Shown piece after piece: positions 10,229 through 64,000 of a DNA stretch of 64,000 nt. The notes beneath the pieces are model-generated. The model saw nothing but the letters and a program-made list of their open reading frames with translations, did no database searches and was not told the DNA's origin. This DNA comes from a virus (Duplodnaviria; Caudoviricetes), in IMG/VR virus record IMGVR_UViG_3300016471_001002, positions 64,001 to 128,000 of that record. One strand, written 5' to 3'. How positions within the stretch are numbered: the stretch's first letter is position 1; every line of letters begins with the position of its first letter. The translations under genes and the position numbers were made by a program.

Positions 10229-11308
10229 ATGCAACGAACGCTTTGTTTTGATGATGTTCTTTTAGTTCCCCAATACTCAGAGATTGAGTCTAGAAAAAAT
10301 GTTGACGTGTCTGTTTCGGGATTTGATGATCTTGATGCAGCGTTGACAAAATCGCATTCGACTCTAAAATGCCCTATCATCGGATCGCCGATGGATACGG
10401 TCATTAGTCCTGAAGTAGCTAGCGTTTTGGAAGATTTTGGTGGATTCGGGGTTTTGCATCGATATTGTACGATTCAAGATTCAGTAAAAATGTTCAAGGA
10501 AACACTTGAAAAGTGTCCAGGACATCCTTTACCAAATATCATGGTTGCAATTGGCGCAACAGGGGATTATCTTGAACGTGCAACTGCTCTATATGAAGCT
10601 GGATGTAGAGCATTTTGCATTGATGTTGCTCATGGCCATCATTCATCTGTTAAAAACGCATTAAAAGAACTACGTCTTAAACTTGGGGATGAAGTTCATT
10701 TAATGTCTGGCAATGTTGCAACGCTAGATGCGTTTAATGATCTTGCGGATTGGGGCTCTAACTCTATCAGGGTTGGTGTGGGTGGTGGAAGCATGTGTTC
10801 GACAAGAATTCGAACGGGTCATGGTATTCCAACTCTACAATCGGTGATGGATTGTGCAAAATCTGATCGTGATGTTTTTATCGTCGCAGATGGCGGAATT
10901 AGAAATTCAGGTGATGCTGTTAAAGCTTTGGCTGCAGGTGCTGATATGATTATGTTAGGATCTATTCTTGCAGGACATGATGAATGTCCCGGAGATCTTG
11001 TAGATTCTCATGGGTTGACATATAAGTCATCGCAACCTATTGGAGTTCCACTTTTTAAGAAATTTAGGGGAATGGCTTCACGAGAAGCTCAACTACAATG
11101 GAGAGGTAGAGTTTCTGTCGTTGAAGGAGAAAGTACGATGATCCCTTACAAGGGATCTGTAGCAAACACATTGACAGATTTGCTTGAAGGAATTAAATCA
11201 GGAATATCTTATTCAGGTGCCAGGACGATTAGAGAACTTAGATCAAAGGCTAAATTCATCACAGTGACATCACAAGGGGTCCGAGAAAATGGACCCCATG
11301 GTAAATGA
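10229..11308 (+). CDS. guaB: IMP dehydrogenase / GMP reductase family (no CBS domains)
   Basis: [32 protein letters not shown] (catalytic Cys), ADGGIR, FRGMAS, SYSGA. Confidence 0.85.
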
Positions 11309-12247: not shown

Positions 12248-13252
12248 ATGGCTAAAGGATTAGATGTAGGAACATCGTTCATCGTTCTTGCAGAAGAAGG
12301 AACGAAAGGAAAAGTTACATATAAAGATTTTCGAGATGCGTTTTATGTTATAAAACCAACGACCCCCATCGCTACAAAGATGATTGAAAAAGGATTAGCT
12401 GGAAAAGTTTTCGTTAAAGACGCCGATGGTTCATTCATCATACTTGGCAAAGACGCGATTGAAAAAGCAGTGGAAAGAAACGATTCAGCGAAGCGTCCCA
12501 TGTATAAAGGTGTAGTTTCTTCTAAAGAAAAAGACGCCCGCAGAATTTTAACATATATTCTCAAAGAAGTTGCTGGCTCACCACCTGAACCCGGAGAGAA
12601 GCTTGTTTTCTGCGTCCCGGCGCAACCTGTTGATCAAGAAGATGAAGACTTCGATGTAGGATATCATGAGGATGTCATTGTGAAACTCCTTTCAGAAGTA
12701 GGGTATTCAGCTAGAGCAATTAACGAAGCCGAAGCACTTTGTTACTCAGAACTAGAAAAGGATGATTATACCGGAGTCACACTATCATGGGGAGCTGGCA
12801 TGGTCAACGTTTGCGTTATGCTAAATGGCGAACCTATCGTCACATTCTCAACCACGAAGTCTGGTGATTGGGTTGATCGTATGGCAGCCGTTGCTACAGG
12901 CGAGACAGATTCAGTCGTTCAAGCAGAGAAGGAACAAGGCGATTTCACTGTCGGTCAACCAAACGATAATCAAGTTCTTGCTGCTGTTTCAACCTACTAT
13001 GATCGTCTCATCGATTATACGACTAAACAACTTGCTTCAGCCATGGACGGACACAAATCTCTTCCAAAGTTCAAGGATGCATTACCTGTAGTTGTTGCCG
13101 GTGGAACATCAAAGGCCAAGGGATTTGTCGATCTATTTGCAAAGAAGCTCGAAGAGAACGGTTTCCCTCTTCCAGTCAAGGAAGTTCGTCACGCAGCAGA
13201 TCCTCTTCATGCAGTTGCCCGTGGGTGTTTAATCGCAGCACAAATTATGTGA
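12248..13252 (+). CDS. Actin-like ATPase (MreB/MamK/ParM-type fold)
   Basis: GLDVGTS (phosphate 1), INEAEA (connect 1), SWGAGMVNV (phosphate 2), VVAGGTS (adenosine), DPLHAVARG (connect 2). Confidence 0.85.
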   Translation: MAKGLDVGTSFIVLAEEGTKGKVTYKDFRDAFYVIKPTTPIATKMIEKGLAGKVFVKDADGSFIILGKDAIEKAVERNDSAKRPMYKGVVSSKEKDARRILTYILKEVAGSPPEPGEKLVFCVPAQPVDQEDEDFDVGYHEDVIVKLLSEVGYSARAINEAEALCYSELEKDDYTGVTLSWGAGMVNVCVMLNGEPIVTFSTTKSGDWVDRMAAVATGETDSVVQAEKEQGDFTVGQPNDNQVLAAVSTYYDRLIDYTTKQLASAMDGHKSLPKFKDALPVVVAGGTSKAKGFVDLFAKKLEENGFPLPVKEVRHAADPLHAVARGCLIAAQIM

Positions 13253-14378: not shown

Positions 14379-15359
14379 ATGGGAGCAGAAAAGTATAATA
14401 AATTTTTAGGAGAGGAAAAAAGCAGAATATTTGAAAGTTTTCTAGTTACGTGGAAAACAAAAGATCAAATACTCGAGATGTATAGAGAAGGTTATTCTCC
14501 TTCTCAACTTGCCAAGTTGTTTGAATATGAAGTTGGATTTGACGAGCTCCGTGAGCAACAATCTACTTTTCACGGTAAAAAACCAAGAAGCTTTTTAGTT
14601 TTTCCGACTATTACAACAAACATCTTTGCAAAAAGACTAACATCTATAATACCCTACTCAAAAGAGTTTCATGATATTCATCTTTCAAAACCGCAATGGT
14701 GGAAAATAAAATTTTCACACCTTGATAAAAGTGAAGATGAAGTTAAAGAACTTGCAAAAGTTCAGCTTCTAGATTGGCAAAAAAGTACATGCGAAAAAAG
14801 AAAAAAGTCAGGTGCTTATAATCCAATTTACACAATTGATTATTGGAAAGAGAAATCCGATGATCCTGAAAAATCAATTGAAAAATATAAACGAGAAATT
14901 AGTCCAAGGTGCATTGAGTTTTGGATAAAAAAAGGATATGACATAAATGAGGCAAAAAAAAGAATAGGCGATACATGTCGACCTGGTGCCATTAAGGTTT
15001 TGAAAAATCTCAATGGAAAAAATGCTTCGAAATTAGAAAAAAGAATTTATGAGCTCATAAATGATGATTCTGTTTGTCAACAGCTTTTTTTGGGCAAATA
15101 TGCATATGACATTTACAAAAAAGAAACAAAGAAGATCGTAGAAATCAATGGAACGTATTGGCACGCAGACCAAAGGGTTTATCAAGATTTGCAGCAAAAT
15201 CTCATTCATGGAACAGTTCAGCAGATTAGAGAAAAAGATGAACAAAAAATATCTTATGCAAAATCTAAGGGATGGGATGTTCTGGTCATTTGGGAACTTG
15301 ACTATTGCAAATCTCCAAATGAAGTGATAGAATCTATTAGAAGGTTTTTCAAAACATGA
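14379..15359 (+). mobile_element. Free-standing homing endonuclease, Vsr/DUF559-like C-terminal domain
   Basis: KLEKRIYE..YAYDIY..IVEINGTYWHAD..KDEQKISYAKSKGWDVLVIWE; (E/D)(F/Y)W.(K/E)K repeats; lies between the two intein halves. Confidence 0.8.
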
Positions 15360-18300
15360 GTAATTTTGTAGAAGTTGTTGAGGTCGAAGAACTTGATTAC
15401 GTCGAAGACGTCTATGATATTACCGTAGAAGATAATCATAACTTCTTTGCAAATGGGATGTTGGTTCACAATTGTCTCGGTGGCACGTTGAGTTATGACG
15501 TCTTTTCCAAATTGCAAAAGATCAAGTTTGATGATCTGAAGCATCAGTTGCTCGATGATGCTGCGCTATTTGAATCTGTCTTGCTCGAGATGGGCAACAC
15601 TTATGATAAGCTTGCAGATGCGGTAGGTCGCGAAAACGTTGCTTTGGAGTTGCAGTTCAATAAACTTCCAGCGCAACATCTTGTCAACCGCGCGCTGATC
15701 GAATTTGCGAAACGAAACTCTTTGTCGAATCGGCTAGTCGTCACCTGCGATTCGCATTATTCTCGTCCTGATAACTGGAAAGAACGTGAGATCTACAAGA
15801 AGCTCGGATGGCTCAACTATCAGAACTTCGATCCTAATATGCTTCCAAAGTCTAAGGATGATCTCAAATGTGAACTGTACCCGAAGAACGCAACCCAGGT
15901 CTGGGATTCATATCTGTCCACAACCGAAGGCATGGATTTCTATGATGATGACCTAATCCGCGAGGCCATCGAACGTACTCATGACATCGTTCATAATGAG
16001 TTAGGTGACATTCATCCCAATAAGGAGATGAAGCTTCCTTCATATGTGATTCCTGAAGGGTCGACGGAAGACAAGGCCCTCGTCGAAGCTTGTAAGAAAG
16101 GATTAATCTGGCGAGGTCTGGATGACAAGCCTGGGTATATCGAGCGAATCAAGTATGAGCTGAAGATTATTCGAGACAAGAAGTTTTCTCGATACTTCCT
16201 CACGATGAAGGCAATCATGGACCTTGCACGTGAACACATGCTGATTGGTCCGGGGCGCGGTTCGGCCGCAGGTTCTCTAGTTGCTTATGTCCTCGGCGTC
16301 ACGAACCTTGACCCAATTGAGTATGACCTTTCATTTGAACGGTTCCTTAATCCCTCTCGCCAGGGCGCTCCTGATATCGATTCTGATATTGGAGACCGCG
16401 ATAAGCTGATCGAACTTCTCCGTGATAATTTTGGTAATAACAATGTTATTCCAATCTCTAACTACAATACCTTTAAGCTTAAGAGCCTTGTCAAAGACAT
16501 TTCAAGATTTTATAACATTCCATTCGAAGAAGTCAATGCTGCTCTTGCTCCGGTAGAAGACGATGTCAAGAAAGAAGTCTTCAAACCTGGTGTCGACAAG
16601 AACCTTTTTGTGTTGACTTATGAAGACGCGATGAAGTATTCTAAGTCGATGCAAGACTTCGTTGCATCGCATCCTGAAGTCGCCGAACCGATTGAGATTC
16701 TTTTCAAGCAGAATCGTTCTCTTGGCCGCCATGCCGGCGGTGTTATCGTGTCTGAAGACATTGCTGAACGTATGCCTCTTATTCTCGCAAAGGGTGAACC
16801 TCAGACTCCATGGGTTGAAGGCATGCATTATAAGCATCTCGAAGAGTTCGGATGGATTAAGTTCGATCTACTCGGCCTCGAAACTTTGCGCATCATCGAA
16901 CGATGCATCTATCTAATTTTGCAAAGGCGTGAAGGAATTGCAAATCCAACGTTCCAAGACATTAAGGCTTGGTTTGATAAACACATGGATCCGAAGAATA
17001 TTGATCTAAATGATCAAAAAGTCTATGAATATGTTTATCACGAAGGAAGGTTTGCCGGCGTGTTCCAATGTACGCAACCTGGCGCACAGCGTCTATTTAC
17101 GAAAGCAAAGCCTCGTAGTATCATTGACATTGCTACTCTAACTTCAATCTATCGTCCAGGTCCTCTTGCGGCAAACGTCGACAAGATCTACATTGGCGCT
17201 AAGAACGAACCTGAAAAGATCGATTACCAACATCCTCTTATCAAGAAGGTGCTAGAACCGACTTACGGATGCATCATTTTTCAGGAGCAAACCATGAAAC
17301 TTTGCTCTGTCGTCGCAGGATTCCCTGAGGCAGAGACGGATACAATTCGCAGAAACATTATGAAACGTTCTGCTTCAAAGAAAGACGCCGCGGCAGCAGA
17401 CGCCAAGAAGGCCAAGGAAGACTTCGTTTCTGGTGCGATGAAGAATGGTGTTCCTGAAAGAGTGGCAGATGAACTCTATGAAAAGATTCTCTTCTTCTCC
17501 GGATACGGTTTTAACGCATCTCACGCAGTGTCTTATGCAATTGATTCTTACTACTGTGCATGGCTCCTCACTTACTTTGAGGAGGAATGGCTTTGTGCTT
17601 ATCTTGAATCGATGTCAGGAAATGATGAGAAGCGTGCTAAGGCTTTCTCAGAGGTCAAAGCGCTTGGATACAAGATCGTAAACATCGACGTCAACTATGC
17701 AACGAAGAGCTGGACTATCCTCGAAGGAAAAAGATTCATGCCAAGCTTCCTTTCATGTAAGGGCGTGGGGGAAGCTGCAGTTGATGAGATCATGGAAAAT
17801 CGTCCATACAAATCAATAGAGGACATGTTATGGAATGAGGACGGTACGTGGAAACATTCTAAATTCAACAAACGAGCTCTTGAAGCCCTGATCGGAATCA
17901 AGGCATTTGACTCATTGGATTGTGTTGGCGTAGATAGAACGTTTAGCAGCTATAGACAAATGTATCAAATCCTGATTGATCATAATAATGAAATCAAGAA
18001 GCATACCAAAAAGAACCCTCTCGTTGGAATGGAAGCATTTCGTAATCTCCTGATCGAATCTAAGGATGAACCTGAGTGGACTCGCGGTGAGATTGTCGAT
18101 AATAGCATTAAATACCTTGGTTCATTTAATGCAGCCATGTTAATGCCTGATGATATCCTAAAGAAGTTGGAATCCAGAGGTGTCAAATCAGTTGATGATC
18201 TTTCAGGTAGTGACATTTACTGGTTTATTGTTTCTGACGCAAAACCCAAAAAGACAAAAACAGGGAAAAACTATTTGCTTTTAACGATTACGGGTATTGG

Positions 18301-18442
18301 AGGTCAAAATCATAGATTGTTCTGTTGGGGGTGGGATGGTATTAGAGAAATTCCCAAGTACAGCGTTTGTCTTTCTGAAATCACAGTCGATGGATACGGT
18401 AATAAAACTTTTATGAGTAAGGTTAAAGTATTGGATTCATGA
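15356..18442 (+). CDS. dnaE: Split intein C-fragment (39 aa, 15356-15472) fused to DNA polymerase III alpha C-terminal fragment
   Basis: VYDITVEDNHNFFANGMLVHN-C (blocks F/G); DSHY, GPGRGSAAGSLVAY, PDIDSD, HAGG, KFDLLGL, RPGP, YGFNASHAVSY, C-terminal OB fold. Confidence 0.95.
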   Translation: MSNFVEVVEVEELDYVEDVYDITVEDNHNFFANGMLVHNCLGGTLSYDVFSKLQKIKFDDLKHQLLDDAALFESVLLEMGNTYDKLADAVGRENVALELQFNKLPAQHLVNRALIEFAKRNSLSNRLVVTCDSHYSRPDNWKEREIYKKLGWLNYQNFDPNMLPKSKDDLKCELYPKNATQVWDSYLSTTEGMDFYDDDLIREAIERTHDIVHNELGDIHPNKEMKLPSYVIPEGSTEDKALVEACKKGLIWRGLDDKPGYIERIKYELKIIRDKKFSRYFLTMKAIMDLAREHMLIGPGRGSAAGSLVAYVLGVTNLDPIEYDLSFERFLNPSRQGAPDIDSDIGDRDKLIELLRDNFGNNNVIPISNYNTFKLKSLVKDISRFYNIPFEEVNAALAPVEDDVKKEVFKPGVDKNLFVLTYEDAMKYSKSMQDFVASHPEVAEPIEILFKQNRSLGRHAGGVIVSEDIAERMPLILAKGEPQTPWVEGMHYKHLEEFGWIKFDLLGLETLRIIERCIYLILQRREGIANPTFQDIKAWFDKHMDPKNIDLNDQKVYEYVYHEGRFAGVFQCTQPGAQRLFTKAKPRSIIDIATLTSIYRPGPLAANVDKIYIGAKNEPEKIDYQHPLIKKVLEPTYGCIIFQEQTMKLCSVVAGFPEAETDTIRRNIMKRSASKKDAAAADAKKAKEDFVSGAMKNGVPERVADELYEKILFFSGYGFNASHAVSYAIDSYYCAWLLTYFEEEWLCAYLESMSGNDEKRAKAFSEVKALGYKIVNIDVNYATKSWTILEGKRFMPSFLSCKGVGEAAVDEIMENRPYKSIEDMLWNEDGTWKHSKFNKRALEALIGIKAFDSLDCVGVDRTFSSYRQMYQILIDHNNEIKKHTKKNPLVGMEAFRNLLIESKDEPEWTRGEIVDNSIKYLGSFNAAMLMPDDILKKLESRGVKSVDDLSGSDIYWFIVSDAKPKKTKTGKNYLLLTITGIGGQNHRLFCWGWDGIREIPKYSVCLSEITVDGYGNKTFMSKVKVLDS

Positions 18443-37900: not shown

Positions 37901-38170
37901 TCAAGGTTCATCACCTTTAACATTCTCATCATAAGAATCTAAATCGTTTAACTCAAGGTTTTCACGTTCATAAAGGGGTTTTTCACAAAGAAAATCTTCT
38001 TTTTGATCTTGCATTGCTTCTTGAAACTCTACGACATTAGCAGATTGTGATTCTTGGTGAATCATTGGTTCATCATATGATGAATTTTTTGTCAAAGGGT
38101 CATTTGGCAAAATGGAAGTGCAAAATGCAAAAATATACGTTGAATAACAAATAAATTTAATTGAGTTCAT
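37901..38170 (-). CDS. Hypothetical protein, possible lipoprotein
   Basis: Hydrophobic N-terminus ending FAFC; acidic tail. Confidence 0.45.
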
Positions 38171-39420
38171 TTTGAAAATTGTTGGGTTTCTGTGGAATGC
38201 TCTAGAGCCAATGTTGATGAAGTACCACCTGTGATGACTTTAGATACTTCATCGAAGTATCCTGTCCCAACTTCTCGTTGGTGTTTTGTAGCCGTATATC
38301 CAAATTGTTCTGAAGCAAACTCTGCTTGTTGCAGTTCAGAATATGCGGCCATTCCTCTGTCCTTGTAAGCACGAGAAAGTTCGAACATTCCATAATTCAA
38401 TGAATGGAATCCGGCGAGTGTGACGAATTGGAATTTGTAACCCATTGCTCCAAGTTCACGTTGAAACTTTGCAATGGTAGCATCGTCGAGCTTCTTCTTC
38501 CAGTTAAACGATGGTGAACAATTGTACGCCAATGGCTTGCCTGGGAATTTTGCATGAATTCCTTCCGCAAATGTTTTTGCTTCTTCGAGATCAGGAGTTG
38601 AAGTTTCCATCCAGATCATGTCCGCGTAAGGTGCATATGCTAATCCGCGGGCGATGCAACGTTCCATTCCTGTTCCGCTAAGGTAATGGAATCCTTCAGG
38701 GGTTCTTTTGTTGGGTTCGATATAAGCATGGTCATACGGATCAGCGTCGCTTGTAATAAGATTTGCAGACTCTGCATCCGTCCTAGCAATGATAACTGTT
38801 GGAACGTCACAAACATCTGCTGCTAAACGAGCAGCTGTTAATGTACGAATAAATTGTGATGTTGGAACAAGAACTTTTCCTCCAAGATGACCGCACTTCT
38901 TTTCAGAAGCAAGTTGGTCTTCCCAATGCACTGCCGCTGCTCCTGCCTCAATCATTGCCTTCATCAATTCATATGCATTAAGAGGTCCTCCAAATCCTGC
39001 TTCTGCGTCTGCGACGATGGGAACCATCCAATGTTTATTGTTATCAGGATTCTCTGCATGCTCAATCTGTTCAGCACGCAAAAGAGCTTGATTAATTCTT
39101 TTGACGATGGTAGGTACGCTGTTTACGGGATACAGGCTCTGATCTGGATATGTGTTCCCTGATAAATTTGCATCTGCTGCGACCTGCCAACCTGAAAGAT
39201 AAATTGCTTCAAGACCGGCTTTTACCTGTTGAACAGCCATTGCACCAGTCGATGCCCCAAGCGCATTGATGTATGGTTTTTCATTGATCAATTTCCAGAA
39301 TCTTTCTGCGCCGAGTCGGGCTAACGTATGTTCGACCCTAGTCTTTCCACGAAGCTTTTCGACATCAGTTTCGTTATAAAGTCTTTTAATGTTTGCAAAT
39401 CTATCTTTCATAATCATCAT
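38167..39420 (-). CDS. aceA: Isocitrate lyase (short type)
   Basis: [66 protein letters not shown]. Confidence 0.96.
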
Positions 39421-50504: not shown

Positions 50505-50855
50505 GTGAATACATTTATGAAAGTAGAACCCTTAAATAAAGTCGCGATTACTCTTTTTATAATTGCAAAAATCTTTGGATTAATTGGCGTTAGCATGGGA
50601 TTCATGGGATCAAAAACGCATACAATCGGAGGATATCTTCTTTTCTTTGCAATAATTTCTATTTTTGGATCCATAGGATGCGCATTGTTTCAAACGGCGA
50701 AAGATAAAAAGAAGTTTTCCAAAGAAGACGAAGAGAATGCAAAGCTTAACTCATTTATAAGAGTAAAATCGACTTTAGAACAAGAAATTAAAGATCTTGA
50801 AGAACGTAGAATGGCCCTTGAAAATTTTTTGATTAAAAAAGGAAAAATGCTATGA
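50505..50855 (+). CDS. Two-TM membrane protein with coiled-coil tail
   Basis: Two hydrophobic segments in residues 12-60. Confidence 0.55.
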   Translation: MNTFMKVEPLNKVAITLFIIAKIFGLIGVSMGFMGSKTHTIGGYLLFFAIISIFGSIGCALFQTAKDKKKFSKEDEENAKLNSFIRVKSTLEQEIKDLEERRMALENFLIKKGKML

Positions 50856-51844
50856 TTAAGTTTGCAGATGTAATTTTAGACCTACAACAAGGTGATAGCG
50901 GAAAAGGAAAAATTTCGAACGCATTGGTTCAGACTGGCGAATATACACATTCAGTTAGATACAACGGATCTAATAATGCTGGGCATACGGTTTATGTTGA
51001 AGGCAAAAAAATTGTTACGCATAGCATTCCTGCCGGCGTTCTTCATGGTGTAAAAAGCATCATTGGCCCTGGTTGCGTTCTTAATATAGATCATTTCTTT
51101 GATGAAATGGATATGCTTTATGATAAAGGAATTGATCCGGATGATTTAGTTTTTATTTCAAAAAATACTCATATCATTACTAATAAGCATCTTGAAGAAG
51201 ATCAACAAGACGTTTCAATCGGAACAACAAAACGAGGCAACGGACCTGCATATAGAGACAAGTACGCAAGAAAAGGAAAACGTGCTGAAGATTTTCATGA
51301 ATTACAACCTTATTTAATTGATGTTTATGAAGAATTTCATGAAAAACAAGAATGCAGCATCCTCTTTGAAGGAGCGCAAGGATTTTATTTAGACATAGAC
51401 TGGGGTGATTATCCCTATGTGACTTCTTCTCATTGTACGGTTGGATCTGCAGTTATGAATGGAGTTCCACCACAAAAGATTAGAAGAATTTATGGAGCAG
51501 CAAAAATTTATGAGACTTATGTTGGTTCAAAGAAGTTTGAACCGAAAGATCCAGTTTTTGAAAAGATTAGGCAACTAGGTAATGAGTTTGGTGCAACCAC
51601 CAATAGGCCGCGGCAGTGTAATTGGTTGAATATTGATAATCTAGTTAAAGCAGTAAAAGTCAATGGTGTGACAGATCTTGTTATATCGAAGATGGATATT
51701 TTAAGAGAAATCCGAGCATGGAACATGTATTATAAAGGAAGAAAACTTTCTTTCTCTTCTGAGTGGGCAATCAAAGATTTTATCACGACTCAAGTTGGAA
51801 AAGATGTTATTATACATTGGAGTGATAATCCAGAAGCCATATGA
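50852..51844 (+). CDS. purA: Adenylosuccinate synthetase
   Basis: GDSGKGK (catalytic Asp kept), NNAGHT, GTTKRGNGPAY, FEGAQG, YPYVTSS, GATTNRPR. Confidence 0.9.
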   Translation: MIKFADVILDLQQGDSGKGKISNALVQTGEYTHSVRYNGSNNAGHTVYVEGKKIVTHSIPAGVLHGVKSIIGPGCVLNIDHFFDEMDMLYDKGIDPDDLVFISKNTHIITNKHLEEDQQDVSIGTTKRGNGPAYRDKYARKGKRAEDFHELQPYLIDVYEEFHEKQECSILFEGAQGFYLDIDWGDYPYVTSSHCTVGSAVMNGVPPQKIRRIYGAAKIYETYVGSKKFEPKDPVFEKIRQLGNEFGATTNRPRQCNWLNIDNLVKAVKVNGVTDLVISKMDILREIRAWNMYYKGRKLSFSSEWAIKDFITTQVGKDVIIHWSDNPEAI

Positions 51845-52206
51845 TTTTCAAGGGGAAAAAAATGGCTAGAAAAGTTGACAAACCGTGGGGGCATGAACTG
51901 ATTTGGGCGGAAACTGAAAAATATGTTGGGAAAATTCTCCATATTTCAAATGGGTTTTGTCTATCGCTACAATATCATAACGTAAAAGATGAAACGATAT
52001 TGGTTCAATCAGGTATTTTAACGATGGAAATAAGAGAAGGCGAGTCTAGGAAAATCTTTAAAATGAATTCTGGAGATTCGATAAGAATTAAACCTACTAT
52101 TATTCATAGAATGTCCGCGTATGACGGAGATGTTGACGTGATTGAAGTTTCAACTTCTGAACTTGATGATGTTATCAGGCTAGAAGACAGTTACGGAAGA
52201 GTTTAG
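51841..52206 (+). CDS. Cupin (mannose-6-phosphate isomerase C-terminal-like)
   Basis: KPWGHE, SLQYH..KDET, IHRM, EVST..LDDVIRLEDSYGR. Confidence 0.82.
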   Translation: MIFKGKKMARKVDKPWGHELIWAETEKYVGKILHISNGFCLSLQYHNVKDETILVQSGILTMEIREGESRKIFKMNSGDSIRIKPTIIHRMSAYDGDVDVIEVSTSELDDVIRLEDSYGRV

Positions 52207-52244: not shown

Positions 52245-54563
52245 ATGAATTCATCTTCGCATTTAAAAAAATTTTTTGCTTTAGCCATTTGCGCAATAAT
52301 TTCATGCGTAAGCGAAACAAAAGAGACAACTACTGATGTAGTTTTTTCTGATGACATAAGCGATTCTTCGCAGGGGGGCAACGAACCTAAAGAACCTGAA
52401 TCCTGCAAAGAAGAAGAAAAACGAACTTGTCATGTTGCGCTTGGTGAACATGAAGGTGTTCTTAGTTGCTTCGTTGGAGTTCAAACTTGTGTAGATGGTG
52501 AATGGTCTGACTGTTCAGACGGCGAAGATGTCAAAAAAATTCCAAATGATGATGGCAAACCTTTATCGCTAACCTCTGAAAAAGTTTGCACTGATAATCC
52601 CTGCGATCCTCGTTGCAGTAAGTGGGTAGAAGATGGGAAGTGGAAGGCAGACGGTTCTATCTGCAAATGGCCGTGGAATTGGTCTAGCACTCCAGCGGAT
52701 AGTATCGATAAGGCGAACAAGGGAGGCGCAGCCAAAGAACCTTGCACACATGGTTCGCAATGCCACCAGAACCAGAAGTGTCAAGATCCAGCTCAAGGAA
52801 GTTGCTCTCATGACATCTGCACCAAAGGTGCAGGTTTAATCAAGGGTTGTGAGACCAAGTGTGTTGACAAGATCTGTGACGAGAAGCCTCAGTGCTGCGA
52901 GAAGAAGTATACAGGTACTTGTGAAGTCGAACCTTGCTTGACCTATCAAAAGGGGTTAACTAAAGATTGCGATCCAAATGTCAAGAAGACCTGTGATTGG
53001 GACAAGACGTGTTGCCCTTATACTCAGATCGAAACCTGTAGTTATTGGGGAATCATTGGATATAAACAGGTTTGCGAATGGATCGAAACTTACAAGTGTG
53101 GCTGGCGTAATTACTATTTCTGCGGATGGAGATGGAGAGAAGTATACACATGTGGTTGGCGTTGGAGAGAAATTTATAAATGTGGCTGGAGATGGCGTGA
53201 GTTCTACGTCTGCGGGTGGCGGTGGAGAGAAATATACGTTTGCGGATGGAGATGGAGAGAAGTATACGTCTGTGGCTGGCGACAGACCTATGTTTGCGGG
53301 TGGAATTATTGTTGTAACTTCTTCTGGTGCGAATGGTGCTACACTTGCTGGTGGGATTACCGGTACGAGTGCTGGTGGGAACAAGTATATGTCTATGAGT
53401 GTTGGTGGGAACAGATCTACGTATATGAATGCTGGTGGGAGCTTCGATATGTGTACGAGTGTTGGTGGGAACAGATCTATGTTTATGAGTGCTGGTGGGA
53501 GCAGCAATACGTGTATGAATGTTGGTGGGAAGAGCGTTACGAGTGCTGGTGGGAACTGACACAAAAGTGTTGGGATGAGCCTGAGTACGGTTGGATCTAT
53601 TATTCCTGCGAGAAGAGTTACGAGGGTGAGTGGACCCAAAAGTGCGTAGATCAATACAAGGTTTATAATCCTGGAGCTTGTCCCATGAGTTGGAAGGGAG
53701 ATTGGGATGCCACCTGTATCAATGCGGTCCACGATACATGTCACAACTATTGCGATGGAGTCAAGAAGGGAGCCGGTGATTGTGTAGAATGGGAGGCTCC
53801 AAACTTCGATGACAAGTGTGGAGACTTTGAACTCGGGGTTGGCCTCACCTGTCAATCAGGTAACACGCCGATCGTCCCAATCTGCAACACTGGGTCCAAA
53901 GAAGCACCGAAAGGTATTCCGATCGCAATCATGCCGAAGGGTTCAGGTTATTTTGGAACAGAACCAACATCGCTTCCGGGTGCGAAGTACTGCTACACCG
54001 ATGAAGCTATTCCGGCCGGTGAGTGTCGCAACGTGAAGAGCTGTAATGTGGTCGACGGAGACGAGGTCATGGTCAACCCGTCCACGAACGCCAGCTACAA
54101 CAAGGCTGAGTGCTTCAAGGGTGACAACTGGGGATTCTTCTATAATGCGGCCTGTGGATATCCACCAAAATGTCCAGGGGGTTATCTAGATACCACCAAA
54201 GTGGAATCTTATGAAACTACTTGTGAATCTGGCGAGACACCAGTCTGGGGTTTCTTGTCTTGGGATTCAACAACACCGCCTGGCACAGAAGTTTCATTCC
54301 GCGTGAGGACAGCGGGAACGAAAGCAGATCTTTCTTCTGCAACTTGGTATTCTGTGTCGACCAAATCGACGAATGCATCTCCTGATTGTTTGGCCAGCGG
54401 ACCGTCACCATGTCCGGTTGACCTCTACAACGTGCTTGGAAAGATTCAAGCTCAGAAGAAGTTCCTGGAGTTGGAGGTCAGTATCAAGGTCGACGCTAAC
54501 AAGAAGAACACACCGGTTCTAGAAAAATGGGAGATCAGCTATTCCTGTAAGGAGGAACAGTGA
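52245..54563 (+). CDS. Large exported Cys/Trp-rich protein with mirror-symmetric repeat
   Basis: Signal/lipobox-like IISC; CGWRWRE.Y. repeats then CWWEQ.YVYE repeats; C-terminal beta-domain WDSTTPPGTEVSFRVRTA. Confidence 0.75.
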   Translation: MNSSSHLKKFFALAICAIISCVSETKETTTDVVFSDDISDSSQGGNEPKEPESCKEEEKRTCHVALGEHEGVLSCFVGVQTCVDGEWSDCSDGEDVKKIPNDDGKPLSLTSEKVCTDNPCDPRCSKWVEDGKWKADGSICKWPWNWSSTPADSIDKANKGGAAKEPCTHGSQCHQNQKCQDPAQGSCSHDICTKGAGLIKGCETKCVDKICDEKPQCCEKKYTGTCEVEPCLTYQKGLTKDCDPNVKKTCDWDKTCCPYTQIETCSYWGIIGYKQVCEWIETYKCGWRNYYFCGWRWREVYTCGWRWREIYKCGWRWREFYVCGWRWREIYVCGWRWREVYVCGWRQTYVCGWNYCCNFFWCEWCYTCWWDYRYECWWEQVYVYECWWEQIYVYECWWELRYVYECWWEQIYVYECWWEQQYVYECWWEERYECWWELTQKCWDEPEYGWIYYSCEKSYEGEWTQKCVDQYKVYNPGACPMSWKGDWDATCINAVHDTCHNYCDGVKKGAGDCVEWEAPNFDDKCGDFELGVGLTCQSGNTPIVPICNTGSKEAPKGIPIAIMPKGSGYFGTEPTSLPGAKYCYTDEAIPAGECRNVKSCNVVDGDEVMVNPSTNASYNKAECFKGDNWGFFYNAACGYPPKCPGGYLDTTKVESYETTCESGETPVWGFLSWDSTTPPGTEVSFRVRTAGTKADLSSATWYSVSTKSTNASPDCLASGPSPCPVDLYNVLGKIQAQKKFLELEVSIKVDANKKNTPVLEKWEISYSCKEEQ
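53037..53609 (+). repeat. Two imperfect 30-nt tandem repeat arrays encoding Cys-registered decapeptides
   Basis: TG(T/C)GG.TGG(A/C)G.TGG.G.GA.. five times and GAGTG(T/C)TGGTGGGA.CAG.. five times. Confidence 0.9.
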
Positions 54564-57270: not shown

Positions 57271-58699
57271 TTATGGGAGATGCAATCAAGCTCTTCTTTA
57301 GAGAAAATATTTAAATGCGGACAGTTGATCACTACAAATTTTGAAGGTGATTACAGGTTAACGTATTGTAGAGTACCTCTAGAGAAAACCATTCCAAATA
57401 ATACTCGATTCTACTGTGGAGACATAGGTCTTATCGTTGAAACGTTAGATGTACCAGACTTATTTTATACGTCTGGATTCGCGATGATTTTAGTTCCACA
57501 AGGAAGAGGGTGGGTCCCTTTTGAGTGGTTAAAGTCGTTGAGTTAATATGTCGCCTGGGGATTTAGTACAAATTACATTAAGAGGAGTATGTTCCGATAA
57601 GTTTATAGGAATATTATTATCAATTTCTCTGGAGTCTCCCCACATTCCAAGGTATGATTCTCAGCAAAGTCGTCCTGGACCGATTTTTAATTTGAAAGTT
57701 TTGAAAATTGATGGAGAAATATGGGATTCTTGGATCGATCAAAATGATATTGTAGAAACTTTATTAAAAAATGAATTATGATTGATCAAAATGATGAAGA
57801 CCGGTGATCTTATCATCGTTATTTCTCACGAATGGGAAAAATCCCAACACGGTCGGCGAGGGTATTCTTCATATCCAAGAGTCCGTGGGTTTCATAAGTC
57901 AATCTACGTAGTACCAGACACGATCGGAATCATACTAGAAAAACGGAATGATTACTACAGGATAGCCTTCGACTCTAGAGAAGTTTGGATGAACATGGAC
58001 AAGGTGAAAAAGCTATAGGATCTCCGGTGGTGGTATGTCGTCGTCTCGTAGAAAAAACGTTGGTGATCTTGTGGTTCCAATCGGTACTTGGGACATTCTT
58101 CTCTTCGATGAAAATGCCGAACTTGGCTACACGATCCACTGGAAACCTGAACACGTGGCTCTCGTCATCGGTATGAAGACCCTCAACGATACCCAAGGAA
58201 GAACTAGGTTAATCGAGGTCCTCACCCCCAACGGTGCCGGATGGTGTTACCTATCGGAGGCTCAGAAGGTAAGATGAACCCCGGTGACCTCGTTAGAAAA
58301 ATCGATTGGAACGGTGAGTTGAATCCCCGGTTGTTAGGGATTCTTCTCGAGGTGAAGATCGATAAAAAGTTGTTGAAGAGCCCCTTTGGAGTTCCGTGGA
58401 TTTATAAAGTGGCATGGAACGATGGTATTATCAAGGAACACGAGATGGGTACCCTCCGCAGGGTTTCAGTCAGGTGAAACATGGAAATCACTTACCACGG
58501 GCACAACACCATAGAACTTAATCCTGGTGACCTAATCCGTTACCAGCTGGTTTCTGGTGTTTGGAACTACATGGGTACATTCATCGATGTTCTTCCACCC
58601 CTTCCTCACCGCGGAAACGTAAGATGGATTCGAGTCTTAACTCAGGACGGTTTGCAGAAGTTAAACACGGCCACCATTTTCAGGATGGAAAAGCAATGA

Positions 58700-58729
58700 G
58701 TGCAAAACCCGTCTTTCCTGTGGTATACT
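58700..58729 (+). promoter_or_regulatory. Putative early promoter
   Basis: GAGTGCAAAAC..., GTGCAA-N18-TATACT with TGG; ATG 58736. Confidence 0.7.
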
Positions 58730-60020
58730 GACCCTATGGATCTGAAGCCCGGTGACCTGGTTCGGCACAAGATCAACCGCGATTGGGTGGGTGTGGTGTT
58801 GGGACTCGCAGTGGACCCGAATTCTCGTAGGAAATTTACGAAGTACACCGCCTACCAGTTGAACTCCTACCGTGTTCTTCGCCTGGGATCTGAATCGACC
58901 CTCTTCGCTAGGTTTCACATCTCGTACTTGGAGGTCATTGGGTGATCAAACCGGGCGATCTGATTCGATTTACTTGGGCTCATCACCAGACGGCCATGGG
59001 TGTTGTTCTATCCATCCATCCACCGCCCAATTATCACAGTGGAATTGATTACACGATAGAGATCTTAGAGCCCGACGGCCGTAAGTTCGTTTATGATGTT
59101 TTTCGGGGTGGTGACCAACCGGAGGTCCTCAGTGAAGCCGGGTGATCTCATTCGTGGGAAGCAAGGCTTCTGGAAGGGCACCCCTCTGGTTGGTATCATC
59201 ATCAAGGAATCTGACCGTAGCAACACCTGGGGAGATGACAGGCACCAATGGTGGACGGTCCTGTGTGAGGGAGGTGTGGTTGTGGACGAGATTGAATCAC
59301 TGATGGAGGTCGTCGATGAAAACTCTTCAGGCAGGTGACCTTGTTCAGGTGGAACCGCATGCCAGTTGCAACGTGGATTGGGGTTCGGCCAAGAGGCATT
59401 TTAACACTGGTAAACAGCCCACCTTGGGAGTCCTGATCGAGAACAAACTCGAGTGGTACCATGTGATGATGAACGATGGTAGATCTGGGTGGATTTGGTT
59501 CCGTGAGGTGAAGCCGTTGTGAAGCCGGGTGATTACGTTTCTGTGACTCGTTATCACAATGGTTTCCGCATGGATGACCCACCTATAACCGGTCTCCTGG
59601 TGGAACGTTGCCCATTGATGCCCTTCGATTCCTTTAAAAGATCTTTCATAATTAAGATACTGGAAACAACAGGGGAATTAAGGGAAATATTTGTGGACAA
59701 TCGTGATGTCACGAAGGTGCTAATTGGAGCCTGAGTACAAGGTCGGTGACCTGGTCCGACTCAATGTGGTCAAGAAACCCTTGGGATTGACGGTCCTCGT
59801 GGACATCAGCGGTGATGTTTTTGCGATGGAGATGAACCGTGATGGTTTGATTCCCAAGATCGTGGGACGGTTTTTCAAGGGTGATGTCGGTGTTGTTCTC
59901 CAGATCGATGATGAAACCTTCATGACTCGGATTATCACCAAGTCAGGTTTGATAGGTTGGGGAAACACTTGGGATTTTATCCCGGTGCAAAACACCGGGG
60001 GATGATGATATTATAGAACC

Positions 60021-60218
60021 ATGAAGCTCGGTGACCTTCTCCTGGTGAATCCTGGAACTCATGTTCCGCCTGGTGGCCGATATTCCCAGGGTGTTGTTCT
60101 AACAAACCCTACCTCTCTGGGTTTTCTCACCATCGCGTGGCGGGATGGTAAGATCACAAGGGAATTTTTGGGTAATGTTTCCAAGTACTACACGGTGATC
60201 AACAGTGAAACCCGGTAA
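60021..60218 (+). CDS. KOW/SH3-like mini-protein, paralogue of 62280..62486
   Basis: GDLLLV.PG..VPPGGRYSQG.VL...AW.DGKIT shared. Confidence 0.7.
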   Translation: MKLGDLLLVNPGTHVPPGGRYSQGVVLTNPTSLGFLTIAWRDGKITREFLGNVSKYYTVINSETR

Positions 60219-60597
60219 ACTCGTTGTGTGGAGAGCTAGATTTCAAATGGATCTTCCTGGTGATATTGGGATCATCCTGGAACACATCCCCCATGAATCC
60301 CGTGGAAATGATCCGTTCCCCCACTGGAAGGTATTGTTTCCGGAACGCGGAGTTCTTCACTGCCGAGAATCGGATCTCCAGGAGGTTGAGTGAGAGTTGG
60401 TGATCTCGTTCTCTACACCAATCCCCAGAGGATGATCTCCCCCACACTCGGGATAATCACCGAGGAACACCACAACATCTCAATCGATCACCGTTTCTTC
60501 TCCGTTCTACTCCACAATGGTAGGAAACAAATCATCTCTGATCACTACCTCTCCCTCCCCGGTGAAAATCCACCGTAGGATGATTTAGGATAACATC

Positions 60598-60813
60598 ATG
60601 AAGAACAAAAGAGGGCATCACTACTTCATTTCCTCCACCAAATCAGGAAAGATTCTTGCCCAAAGCGGGGAGAAAGGTGATGTGGAGAAGTTCTCCGAAA
60701 CATGGATTCGAGAATCTCCCCATTATGATCCAGGTGATCCAATCATCATAGAGAAGGTTACCGTGGATTGGGATGGTTTCAAAACCTCAAAAAAGATCAT
60801 CAAGGAATATTGA
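60598..60813 (+). CDS. Small hypothetical protein (non-KOW member of the array)
   Basis: ORF track; SD AGGA. Confidence 0.55.
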   Translation: MKNKRGHHYFISSTKSGKILAQSGEKGDVEKFSETWIRESPHYDPGDPIIIEKVTVDWDGFKTSKKIIKEY

Positions 60814-60816
60814 ACA

Positions 60817-61068
60817 ATGCCGCTCTATAGAGTAACATTCCATACAGAAATCCTCATCGATGCCCGTGATGAACGTGAGGCCGAGAGGATTGGGGATAGA
60901 AACCTAGAATCCGAGGTTAGGAACTGTGGATCCGAGGTGTATCGGATTGAGGAATTGAATTCCGTGGATCAACTCCGAAGGGCAGAGAGGGGTTCCTTAC
61001 CTTGGAGAGCAACGGAGAGAAGAGGGGAACCTGAGCTACTGGTGGAAGAGATTCTGGGAGGAAAGTGA
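60817..61068 (+). CDS. Small hypothetical protein (non-KOW member of the array)
   Basis: MPLYRVTF..IDARDEREAE. Confidence 0.55.
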   Translation: MPLYRVTFHTEILIDARDEREAERIGDRNLESEVRNCGSEVYRIEELNSVDQLRRAERGSLPWRATERRGEPELLVEEILGGK

Positions 61069-61071
61069 ACC

Positions 61072-61437
61072 GTGGGTACAAACTATTATCTCCACCAAAA
61101 ATCAACCTCGATGTGTGAACACTGTGGGCATGACCCCGGTGCCAAGGTGTTACACATAGGAAAATCCTCCTATGGTTGGTGTTTCTCCCTTCACATCATT
61201 CCTGAGGAAGGTATCAATTCCTTGGATGATTGGAAGTTGGCCTGGGATAAACCTGACACCAAGATCCTCAATGAATATGATGAGGTTGTCCGGCCCGAGG
61301 ACATGTTGAAGATCATCACCACTCGTGGCCCTGGAAAATGGTCACCTGAGGGAATGGATCCACAGAGACATGATGGGGATCACTGTGTTGGGCATGGAAA
61401 TGAATCATATGATCTTATCATTGGGGAATTTAGTTGA
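61072..61437 (+). CDS. Phage hypothetical protein
   Basis: MGTNYY..CEHC..LHIGKSSYGWCFSLH. Confidence 0.6.
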   Translation: MGTNYYLHQKSTSMCEHCGHDPGAKVLHIGKSSYGWCFSLHIIPEEGINSLDDWKLAWDKPDTKILNEYDEVVRPEDMLKIITTRGPGKWSPEGMDPQRHDGDHCVGHGNESYDLIIGEFS

Positions 61438-61467
61438 GTGCAAAACACCGTGAGGGGATGATATACT
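61438..61467 (+). promoter_or_regulatory. Putative early promoter
   Basis: GAGTGCAAAAC..., GTGCAA-N18-TATACT with TGA; ATG 61474. Confidence 0.7.
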
Positions 61468-62279
61468 GGTAACATGGAGATCATCCGGGTACATGAACTT
61501 CAGGTTGGAAAACTGTACCGTTGGAATGAGTACATGGGTGATCAAGATGAGATCTTCATGGTGGTTGGAAACCCCATCGATGGAGTATCTCAGGATGTTC
61601 ACTATGTGGAAGTAATTTCCAGTAAGTTTTCCCACAATAAAATGATGGTTTTCTCCTCCGATCGATTCAACGAGGTGATGGAATGAAGCCCAGTTCCGGT
61701 ATGGTTCCAGGTGTTCTGGTTAGAAACCGTTGCTATATGCATTTTTATCTCACCGCGGAAAGTGTTAACCGTGGAATTCCGAAGGAAGGAATTCCTATGG
61801 ATTCCATCAGTACTGTTCTCACCCCGCCTAACGGAACCTGGATCAAGGTTCTGTGTGATGGTAAGATCGGCTGGGTTAACTGGACCCTGTGGCTTGAGGT
61901 GATCCAGTGAAACCAGGTGATCTGGTTAGGTTAACTCGTTTCGATGAGATACCTTTCATTGGTGTTTATCTCGGCCCATCCAATAGATTTGATGAGAAGA
62001 GACAACCTTATGAGGGGAGGTTCGTGTTGAACACCGGAATCATTAAAGATGTTGATTTCGGAAACCATTTGGTTTGGAACTTCGAGGTGATGAAGTGAAA
62101 CTATCTCTCGGTGATATGGTTTTCGTGAGGGATTCTCTCTTTGTTCCTCCAACAAAACCGTTAATCATCATTGATATCTACAAGGTAGGGCTTTCTTCGT
62201 ATCCCTACTTCGTGGTTGTGGATCCAAACACCGGTGAAAAGTTTACTTACCAGAAACACGATCTTTCGGAGGATCCTCT

Positions 62280-62486
62280 GTGAGTTTTTGTGTTGGTGAT
62301 TTACTCCTCGTGGCACCGGGTTCATATGTTCCACCGGGTGGAAGATATTCCCAGGGGATTGTTTTATCTGATCCTGATCCAGGTTTCCGTACCGTGTATG
62401 TGGCCTGGTATGATGGTAAGATCACCCAGGAATTGGTGAGTAACCTTTTGAAATCCTACGTGAGGATCACCAATGATTCTAGGTGA
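62280..62486 (+). CDS. KOW/SH3-like mini-protein, paralogue of 60021..60218
   Basis: Shared VPPGGRYSQG and DGKIT. Confidence 0.7.
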   Translation: MSFCVGDLLLVAPGSYVPPGGRYSQGIVLSDPDPGFRTVYVAWYDGKITQELVSNLLKSYVRITNDSR

Positions 62487-63304
62487 TCTTCTCCAGGCAA
62501 AGAGTAAAATCCAGGTTGGTGTGGTTCGGATCTACAGGGAGCCCCAATGTGATTCATGGGAAACACACACGATAAAGGGTGAAACATTCCTTCTATTGGA
62601 GGAACACAAGAATCAGTGGGGCCAGGATGTTTGTAAGGTTCTATTTCCCTGGGGAATCCGTTGGGTTTACCGGTTGGATGTGGAGGTGGTGGAATGAAAA
62701 GGGGAACCTTGGTTCGATTCAACGTTTCCATCTATTCTGATTGGGGTTTGGGGATTCTCCTCGGTGAGAAACCGATTGTGGATAGAGAAGGTAGGAATCA
62801 CCGTGGATTTTATGATGTTTTAACCCAGTGTGGAGTTAAACTAGTTTCCAGTGAATACTTTGAGAGGTTGAGTTGGGATGTTTAGCATTGGTGATTTGGT
62901 GAGGATGAAGAAAGTTTATAGTTCCACACCACTTTTTTCCACCTGGGGAAACAAGGAAGGTGGTGATAAACCCATTGGAACCATTCAACCAGGTGAGATC
63001 GGTGTTGTTCTTGAAACAACCCAACCTCGAGGTGGAAACGGGGCACGGATCATGGTATCCGGTGGGAAGATCGGTTGGGTTAATCTTATTTTCCTGGAGA
63101 ATGAAACATGAAACCTGGGGATCTTCTCAAATTCATCCATATTGTTGATCTAATGGATCCGATTTACCGTGAATCCGGGTGGAAGTTTGGGATCTACCTG
63201 GAGCACAAAAACATTAAGTTCAGTGGTGAAACCATAAAGGTTATCGATTCCGACGGGAAGATAAACCACTATCCTCAGGATTCATATCATTTCCAGGTGG
63301 TGGA

Positions 63305-63478
63305 ATGATTCCATCTCCAGGTGATTTGGTAAAAGTGAAAGGCTACAGAACAGATTCACTCGGGTTGATTATCGATATTCAAGGTGGAACTGGTTTGTAC
63401 CGGGTTTGGTTGCTCGGCCAACCTGATCTCTATAAGGTTTTCCGGTATTCCAAGGAGATGTTGGAGGTTGTGGGGTGA
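63305..63478 (+). CDS. KOW/SH3-like mini-protein (57 aa, not in the ORF track)
   Basis: MIPSPGDLVKVKG..GLIIDI..YRVW..LEVVG; fills the gap between coupled neighbours. Confidence 0.7.
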   Translation: MIPSPGDLVKVKGYRTDSLGLIIDIQGGTGLYRVWLLGQPDLYKVFRYSKEMLEVVG

Positions 63479-64000
63479 GAAACAATGATATCCCCAGTAT
63501 CAATCAGGTGGTACCTGGATCCCTGGTTATCCACCGTTACACCCCTGAGATCGGTGTGGTTCTCCGCGTTTCCTGGAACATGGTTGAGGTTCTACTTGGA
63601 AACTCCACCGTGAAGTGGGAGATGAATGGATTCAGAAGTACCTATAGGAATCTCCAGTGAGAATCGGTGATATGGTTCAACTCAGCCCCTCCCACAAGAG
63701 TTACGTTAACATGTATGAGGAGGATGATCTGAACCGAATAGAGAACGGTGAAAGGTTCTACCGGAATGATATAGGATTGGTTCTGGAGAGCCAAGGGAAC
63801 GGGGAATACATCCACTTCAAGGTTTTAACTCCCCGCGGGGCAATGGGGTGGATCCATAACTTCCACCTGGAGTTGGTGAGATGAAACCCGGAGATTTGGT
63901 TTTAATCTCCGCGGATTTTCTGGAACCACATGAACCCCGTGTGGGGATATTCTGGAGTGATAAGGTTCCACTGGATGAATGGGGAGATCAGGTTGCAGGT

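Follow-up and report, generated by a model that had tools for sequence, protein, structure and literature searches.

A mirrored cysteine-repeat insert in a jumbo-phage lipoprotein, predicted to form a long cystine-stapled beta-hairpin of variable length

The cystine ladder of a theta-defensin has three rungs (PMC6327110, citing Conibear 2012), and the HAP2 protein of green algae carries an EGF-resembling loop insert in which a cystine ladder-like arrangement places three disulfides in 37 residues (PMC6327110). The subject of this report is an insert of about 200 residues in a cysteine-rich lipoprotein of 772 residues (P0001), which is encoded in a 64,000-nucleotide stretch of phage DNA (hereafter the window). 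The window comprises bases 64001-128000 of a 211-kb IMG/VR virus record (IMGVR_UViG_3300016471_001002, here G000) that is estimated to be 65% complete. The cysteine spacing of the insert is mirror-symmetric and predicts a single, very long beta-hairpin. Such a module would work on the same principles as the theta-defensin ladder, the HAP2 insert and the tryptophan zippers (trpzips), but it is 4-7 times larger, modular, variable in length and embedded in a lipoprotein.

Like the theta-defensins and the peptides of the tachyplesin/protegrin class, the insert is rich in Arg, Trp and Tyr, and parallel disulfides would link its two antiparallel strands along a single face. Those peptides, however, are free and cationic, with two to three rungs in about 18 residues, and the theta-defensins are cyclic, whereas modules of the P0001 type span 200-390 residues, with about 12 predicted rungs in P0001 and as many as ~20 in relatives, consist of expandable repeats and are roughly charge-balanced. 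The insert does not belong to the theta-defensins, which are head-to-tail cyclic, cationic and about 18 residues long, since its Arg is balanced by Glu and it is about 200 residues in length. As in HAP2, a larger extracellular protein appears to have gained, in one of its loops, a lineage-specific ladder of parallel disulfides, although the HAP2 insert lacks repeats, an aromatic zipper and variation in length. Trpzips are synthetic peptides of 12-16 residues without disulfides; the insert shares their cross-strand aromatic pairs, which in P0001 lie on the same face as the disulfides. Beta-pore-forming toxins (lysenin, aerolysin, anthrax PA, CDTb) have stem hairpins that are also very long and two-stranded, but the fold matches to them are so weak (TM-score ~0.1) that the resemblance is one of outline only. 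These stems exist solely within an oligomeric barrel, lack a disulfide ladder and show polar/apolar alternation. Each face of the P0001 hairpin is of mixed polarity, whereas an amphipathic stem would have a polar and an apolar face. Literature searches on PF26780/DUF8252, on cystine or disulfide ladders and on tryptophan zippers yielded no description of a module of this kind.

The mirrored cysteine register and the predicted hairpin

The interval 53037-53609 is in frame with the open reading frame (ORF) 52245-54563 on the + strand and corresponds to codons 265-455. Its 191 residues include 35 Trp, 29 Tyr, 25 Glu, 24 Cys and 15 Arg. Counted between successive cysteines, the residues number 11,7,7,9,9,9,9,9,7 in the N-arm, 4,0,4,2,2 in the tip and 7,9,9,9,9,9,7,7,12 in the C-arm. 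A reading made earlier from the sequence only (the sequence-only reading) had reported the mirrored arm series, which proved exact; the N-arm motif CGWRWRE.Y., the C-arm motif CWWEQ.YVYE and the composition of the arms were likewise as it had described them.

Tandem Repeats Finder (TRF) detected two distinct arrays, 53121-53282 and 53363-53531, each with a period of 30 nt. The DNA of the repeat region contains no inverted repeat, so the mirror symmetry is present at the protein level alone, and a DNA palindrome as the origin of the mirror spacing is ruled out. When the order of the gaps was shuffled, a mirror of eight intervals was reached in 0 of 5000 shuffles; the observed mirror was likewise never reached for homologues with 9-16 mirrored intervals. 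With residues paired such that i+j=719, each arm Cys of P0001 stands opposite a Cys. In seven symmetric sequences, every N-arm Cys (86/86) faced a Cys at a constant i+j, compared to 44/86 for the best shifted register. Within the close group, every arm gap is an odd number (5, 7, 9 or 11). The periods are thus even (8, 10 or 12), which puts every rung on the same face and provides the equivalent pairing sites that a beta ribbon needs. Antiparallel strands with Cys facing Cys in register define a cystine ladder, and this arrangement is what the spacing and the structural models predict for the P0001 insert.

Structure prediction had been proposed as a check on the hairpin, and both AlphaFold2 runs returned one with its turn at the palindrome centre, rather than a solenoid or a globular fold. 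The full-length model (74 sequences) had a mean predicted local distance difference test score (pLDDT) of 78.8 and contained strands at residues 259-358 and 361-459 with the turn at 359-360, which is the palindrome centre. Even the strand breaks of this model were mirrored (316-319 and 400-403). Prediction for residues 250-470 alone (9 sequences) yielded two unbroken strands of 96 residues, connected by the turn N-F-F-W, with an arm pLDDT of 80-89.

We propose that residues ~259-459 form a single two-stranded antiparallel beta-hairpin of about 100 residues per strand, in which residue i would pair with residue 719-i. Ten in-register rungs would extend from 277/442 through 357/362. An 11th rung, 265/455, is probable across a one-residue bulge, and a 12th disulfide, 356/365, probably lies on the opposite face at the tip. 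The cross-arm disulfide ladder of the sequence-only reading is retained in this model, but its figures of about 10 disulfides and about 85 residues per arm were too low, as about 12 and about 100 were counted. At 0.33 nm per residue, the extended rod would measure ~30 nm in P0001 and ~26-63 nm across alleles.

The two faces of the predicted ribbon differ in composition. The Cys face (82 residues) contains 23 Trp, 23 Tyr, 20 Cys, 7 Glu and 6 Gln, while the other face contains 16 Glu, 15 Arg, 12 Val, 8 Trp and 8 Gly. The former combines the cystines with an aromatic zipper, in which cross-strand W-Y and Y-W pairs occur at offsets 2 and 4 from each Cys; on the latter, the Arg of the N-arm is set against the Glu of the C-arm, together with Val and Ile. 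This agrees with the layout of salt bridges and aromatic residues that had been anticipated, one face being made up of W/Y/C and the other of R/E/V.

The tip did not conform to expectation. It had been described as a small Cys knot, but the turn C[NSD][FW][FW][WGS]C is present in all close relatives, and the two additional Cys of the 4,0,4,2,2 tip type (356 and 365 in P0001) are always either both present or both absent. In the model these two residues are diagonal neighbours on the opposite face. It is more likely that the tip is a four-residue aromatic turn closed by a Cys pair, with a single extra disulfide, than that it is a knot. Tips in distant relatives are rich in Trp and Gly.

Arm lengths and unit types across homologues

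Homologues of P0001 with 54-88% identity are found on both phage-like and bacterial contigs. From a protein search, IMG/VR and a metagenome scan we collected 34 complete hairpin regions, 25 of which are distinct; 11 of 35 metagenome loci lacked a complete region, mostly because the contig ended there. If the two arms pair, homologues should have equal repeat counts in both, and 22 of the 25 distinct regions have arms of equal length. Eight equal-arm lengths were observed (60, 70, 80, 90, 100, 112, 166 and 172 residues per arm). The arms are built as 3+3, 4+4, 5+5, 6+6 or 7+7 units of ten residues, and the longer forms mix units of 10 and 12 residues. The periods of these mixed forms follow one another irregularly, yet their order has an exact mirror in the other arm: the gaps of L005 are 7,7,9,9,11,9,11,9,11,9,9, then 4, then the reverse. 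P0007 and P0005 each have 16 mirrored intervals, and a series as irregular as 5,11,9,11,9,11,9,11,11,9,11,11,9,9,7,7 is still matched exactly by its opposite arm. Mirroring persists in relatives of 30-45% identity whose units are unrelated, being Lys-rich or of period 8 (9 intervals in P0008, 12 in P0013, 7 in P0014 and 6 in P0010).

Equal arms could be a matter of shared ancestry, and to address this a maximum-likelihood tree was built from the flanks outside the repeats. P0001 (5+5), L009 (6+6) and L004 (7+7) have near-identical flanks and are separated by branch lengths of 0-0.005. Further symmetric length changes occurred in at least three other clades of the flank tree. Different equal-arm lengths in near-identical genes imply that the arms have changed together, many times and recently, as the sequence-only reading had supposed when it stated that the two arrays must expand together.

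The order of unit types provided a second line of evidence. N-arm units that have Phe at position 8 are opposed by C-arm units whose position 6 is Arg or Trp, and in the i+j=719 register these two positions would be diagonal neighbours on the same face. Unit types agreed in 93 of 96 pairs when the arms were compared in mirror order, but in only 69 of 96 when they were compared in parallel order. The two orders are separated by sequences that are asymmetric along the arm, for example FFFFII against VIRRRR. Taken together, these comparisons indicate that the register is enforced by selection: arrays unrelated in their DNA expand and contract together, and do so in mirror order.

Weighing the hairpin against other readings

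Taking the structural and the evolutionary claims jointly, we consider it probable that the insert is one intramolecular antiparallel hairpin of a lipoprotein and that selection keeps its register. Several observations weigh against this. The mid-arm pLDDT was only 40-50 in the full-length model, the alignments covering the insert were shallow (9 rows), and the disulfide map is a predicted and the rod length a calculated one. About 46 exposed Trp and Tyr over ~30 nm might demand a partner or self-association. Homologues with unequal arms, which had been named at the outset as an outcome that would count against the hairpin, do exist: 3 of the 25 distinct regions are of this kind (L029, 70/60; P0004, 90/50; P0006, 176/132). 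In two of these, the circumstances lessen the difficulty. The flanks of P0004 are identical to those of the symmetric L019, and its C-arm resembles the product of an internal loss of four units; the P0006 locus consists of near-perfect repeats, with 67-nt exact repeats at 66-nt spacing, and short-read assembly is unreliable there. The same cannot be said of assembly at P0004, where the repeats have diverged and the longest exact repeat is 20 nt, so that an easy collapse is unlikely. The unequal-arm alleles may be recent variants or assembly variants, perhaps real but short-lived intermediates, and none has formed a lineage. With respect to function, searches for DSBA and Thioredoxin_4 found no Dsb gene in the 65%-complete phage record.

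The arms could also be antiparallel but paired between chains or in a higher-order structure, such as a domain-swapped dimer, hairpins packed face to face to bury Trp and Tyr, or a multi-hairpin barrel or sheet. Pairing of an N-arm with the C-arm of another chain would need mirror symmetry as well, and the Cys face (23 Trp, 23 Tyr and 20 Cys among 82 residues) is very hydrophobic for exposure to solvent. Designed tryptophan zippers reportedly show, however, that a Trp-paired face can stay monomeric in water. A Foldseek search with the hairpin model returned the long hairpins of pore-forming-toxin stems (lysenin, aerolysin, anthrax PA), which are oligomeric and are its only fold matches besides phage tail proteins. 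These matches carry no weight, since the TM-scores were only ~0.1 and the best VIA-align Z was 2.6, and the polar/apolar alternation of a membrane barrel is present on neither face. In addition, the palindrome centre coincides exactly with a four-residue turn closed by a Cys pair, and AlphaFold2 gave an intramolecular hairpin in both runs. We judge pairing between chains to be unlikely.

The position of the insert bears on what an intramolecular hairpin could do. Residues 187-257 of P0001 (52803-53015) contain two tandem small Cys motifs, H..C..G..L...C..CV..IC...P.CC, which are also found in the family consensus, and the second copy is interrupted by the hairpin, which lies within a small disulfide-rich module, after its CCPY motif and ahead of its W...CV motif. 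As the insert would leave and re-enter this domain at one loop, the hairpin would project from the protein body as a free spike. Such a rod would bear nothing except its aromatic tip and, unlike a stalk, would hold up no domain. Near-identical phage genes differ in hairpin length by whole units, and the rapidity of these changes suggests that reach is under selection. At the envelope of the infected host cell, the spike might fix or sense a distance, its reach matching for example the depth of an envelope layer or the distance to a partner surface; we offer this function, that of a rigid projection of variable length, only tentatively. Receptor probing, superinfection exclusion and surface display, which the sequence-only reading had put forward, are further candidate functions.

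A different function would follow if a linear polymer bound along the aromatic face. The ligand could be a glycan strand of peptidoglycan, an exopolysaccharide or a cellulose- or chitin-like chain, and length would then tune avidity and not reach. The regular line of Trp and Tyr along one face would suit such binding, and Trp-rich tips are conserved in close and distant relatives alike. Moreover, the beta-sandwich and CARDB-like domains of the body are typical of adhesins, and some relatives have vWA and C-type lectin domains. No Pfam carbohydrate-binding family was matched, however, and the aromatic residues are already taken up in cross-strand pairs beside the cystines. We therefore regard polymer binding as rather improbable; it concerns function alone and is compatible with the hairpin structure.

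Tandem repeats that are short and rich in Cys and aromatic residues commonly fold as solenoids, examples being choline-binding repeats and the antifreeze proteins of insects, but a beta-solenoid or other compact repeat fold with incidental mirror spacing is very improbable here, because it gives no reason for the mirrored irregular 7/9/11 patterns, the covariation of arm lengths or the mirror order of unit types, and because both structure predictions are hairpins. An artefact, in the form of a non-coding or mis-assembled tandem repeat, might be suspected from the further frames open across the repeat and from the incomplete metagenome loci, but it is refuted by dozens of independent contigs, drawn from several collections, in which the same frame and its flanks are conserved, and it is also at odds with the divergence of the repeats at the DNA level (longest exact repeat 27 nt in the P0001 gene) and with the high confidence of the AlphaFold2 models for the flanking domains.

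If the hairpin model holds, this would be the longest known single beta-hairpin, a rod that lacks a hydrophobic core and is held by a cystine ladder and an aromatic zipper alone. It would also be a clear case of compensatory repeat evolution, in which a change in one DNA array has to be answered in another, unrelated one at a distance of more than 200 nt. The alleles form a natural length series, from 3+3 to 7+7 with longer mixed forms beyond, which suggests a modular and very stable scaffold for nanoscale spacers or display. On balance we lean towards the view that these proteins constitute an undescribed class of repeat protein, with mirror-paired unrelated arrays forming a free-standing, cystine-stapled Trp/Tyr ribbon of 26-63 nm, adjustable in steps of ~3.3 nm as both arms gain or lose one unit each, that serves as a rigid envelope ruler or aromatic-tipped spike in jumbo phages and Myxococcota. 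The length series would point to the setting or probing of envelope distance as a task common to both, and the module has likely been exchanged between them.

The gene, its family and the phage genome

Features of the gene and its product are listed in Table 1.

Table 1. Positions in the window of the hairpin-bearing gene and the parts of its product
Feature	Position	Strand	Residues and details	Basis
Cys-rich lipoprotein gene carrying the predicted hairpin	52245..54563	+	772 aa, 70 Cys	ORF and translation
Predicted lipoprotein signal peptide	52245..52307	+	lipobox A-I-I-S-C21	PS51257-like pattern
Low-complexity, predicted disordered tether behind the putatively lipidated Cys	52308..52379	+	aa 22-45	AlphaFold2 pLDDT <50
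N-terminal Cys-rich modules	52404..53015	+	aa 54-257; CCPY motif at the end marks the start of the insert	family-wide conservation
N-arm strand (predicted)	53019..53315	+	aa 259-357; Arg-rich CGWRWRE.Y. units	Cys positions, predicted strands, TRF array
N-arm rung Cys			277, 285, 293, 303, 313, 323, 333, 343, 351, 357	
Tip	53310..53339	+	aa 356-365; turn N-F-F-W closed by C357/C362	palindrome centre in both models
Extra tip Cys pair			356/365, on the other face	
C-arm strand (predicted)	53328..53621	+	aa 362-459; Glu-rich CWWEQ.YVYE units	Cys positions, predicted strands, TRF array
C-arm rung Cys			362, 368, 376, 386, 396, 406, 416, 426, 434, 442	
C-terminal Cys-rich region and beta-sandwich domains	53622..54560	+	aa 460-772; conserved family body	

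The hairpin had been described as inserted into an exported protein, and both parts of this description were supported. A PS51257-like pattern, that is, a signal peptide ending in [LVI][ASTVI][GAS]C near the N-terminus, was matched by P0001 and by 84 of 124 full-length family members. P0001 thus has the lipobox of bacterial lipoproteins, and its lipidation is predicted. Its 70 Cys (35 potential disulfides) imply oxidation outside the cytoplasm and hence export. We infer that P0001 is an exported protein of the infected cell's envelope and, one step further, that it is not part of the virion. A unimolecular spanin was considered in view of the lipobox and rejected, as P0001 has no hydrophobic helix at its C-terminus, where a conserved polar beta-sandwich runs to the final ...SYSCKEEQ; bacterial homologues in non-lysis contexts also count against this identity.

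In the full-length model, pLDDT was mostly 84-94 for the N-terminal modules, with a low-confidence stretch at residues 95-106, and mostly 86-97 for the C-terminal body, with lower values at residues 471-480 (80) and 711-720 (78) and at the last two residues. VIA-align with this model matched the Bd1399 beta-sandwich (Z 9.2, 3.1 A, 134 residues aligned) and, for residues 514-634, a CARDB-like domain (Z 7.4). Apart from the CARDB-like one, the matches are to generic beta-sandwich folds, and Bd1399 is itself of unknown function. Sequence searches with P0001 were negative: there was no Pfam hit at E<=1 (hmmscan, with a Pfam set that lacked the PF26780 model), no family in PHROGs or NCBIfam, no match to the hidden Markov models of CW_binding_1/choline-binding or other repeat families in Pfam, PHROGs and NCBIfam, no match in the PDB at E<=1, and none among GenBank phages by tblastn and megablast. 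ESM Atlas yielded no usable match for residues 250-470.

Precomputed PF26780/DUF8252 hits, some of them marked weak or faint, are recorded for homologues of 54-80% identity. The DUF8252 lipoproteins are mainly from Myxococcota, and many contain a vWA domain; their body, with its N-terminal Cys-rich modules and C-terminal beta-sandwich, is homologous to that of P0001. The phage copy differs in that it has no vWA domain (VWA, PF00092, was not matched in P0001 but is present in the bacterial relatives P0008, P0014, P0016 and P0020), and in that most family members lack the hairpin. The long mirrored Cys pattern is present in only about 12 of the 159 family proteins compared, the others scoring 1-3 intervals, which identifies the hairpin as an insert. 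A short mirrored Cys pattern (0,5,4, then 9,2, then 4,5,0) was seen in many relatives. The family comprises 771 cluster representatives at E<=1e-3, and its named members are vWA-domain proteins of Polyangium and Polyangiaceae, a taxonomy that rests on cluster names.

The hairpin-bearing P0005 and P0006 are encoded at bacterial loci of 62% GC, while the other hairpin relatives are on phage-like contigs of 30-42% GC. Both bacterial loci (L008 for P0005, L003 for P0006) share the same block order: an FG-GAP/ASPIC protein, the hairpin protein, a protein of 393-399 residues, a trypsin-like protease and DUF3105. The protein of 393-399 residues has a weak DUF4215 match in L008, and a DsbA/thioredoxin gene is located upstream in L003.

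The hairpin gene in the window has a GC content of 47%, compared to 39% for the window as a whole, which would fit acquisition from a GC-rich bacterium or the mere codon content of a protein rich in Trp, Gly, Arg and Cys. Other frames of 169-299 codons are open across the repeat, at 52956-53855 (-), 52978-53559 (+) and 53053-53562 (-); these are a by-product of repeat composition and not overlapping genes. Immediately upstream of the hairpin gene there is a small ORF that matches PHROG 7851 (cysteine dioxygenase), and ORF 50852-52206 (+) is one that we take, from reading its sequence, to be adenylosuccinate-synthetase-like.

The record as a whole derives from a contractile-tailed jumbo phage. 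It encodes a terminase, a portal, a major head protein and at least two tail-sheath paralogues, all identified with PHROGs; Pfam searches of the record for capsid and terminase returned nothing. Among the genes of the window are those for RNR, a DnaE-type polymerase, ThyA, an IMPDH/GMP-reductase-family protein, isocitrate lyase and an actin homologue. The isocitrate lyase, at 38167-39420 (-), and the IMPDH/GMP-reductase-family protein, at 10229-11308 (+), are unusual metabolic genes for a phage, as are the cysteine dioxygenase-matching and adenylosuccinate-synthetase-like ORFs. The actin homologue, at 12248-13252 (+), is a full-length match to the Volactin family (E 7e-66) and may be a phage cytoskeletal protein. 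The ORF of the DnaE-type polymerase, 15356-18442 (+), contains an intein C-terminal splicing segment at residues 4-39, and its start is overlapped by the end of a 326-residue ORF at 14379-15359 (+), which suggests that 14379-18442 is an intein-interrupted or split polymerase gene.

Downstream of the hairpin gene, from 57280 to 64000 and on to ~66241 beyond the window, about 35-40 small ORFs of 57-129 residues are arranged head to tail on the + strand. An N-terminal M-K-P-G-D-L-V/I-R is common among them, and paralogy can be detected between several, at identities of up to 57%; the GC content of the array is 0.46-0.49, compared to 0.33-0.40 in most 2-kb bins elsewhere. The array looks like a large tandem family of small proteins. 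Outside the window, at G000:C1:30487-39918, there are three adjacent ORFs of ~1000 residues. Two of them were scanned, and each matched PHROG 23 (tail sheath), so that the sheath gene appears to be duplicated in this record.

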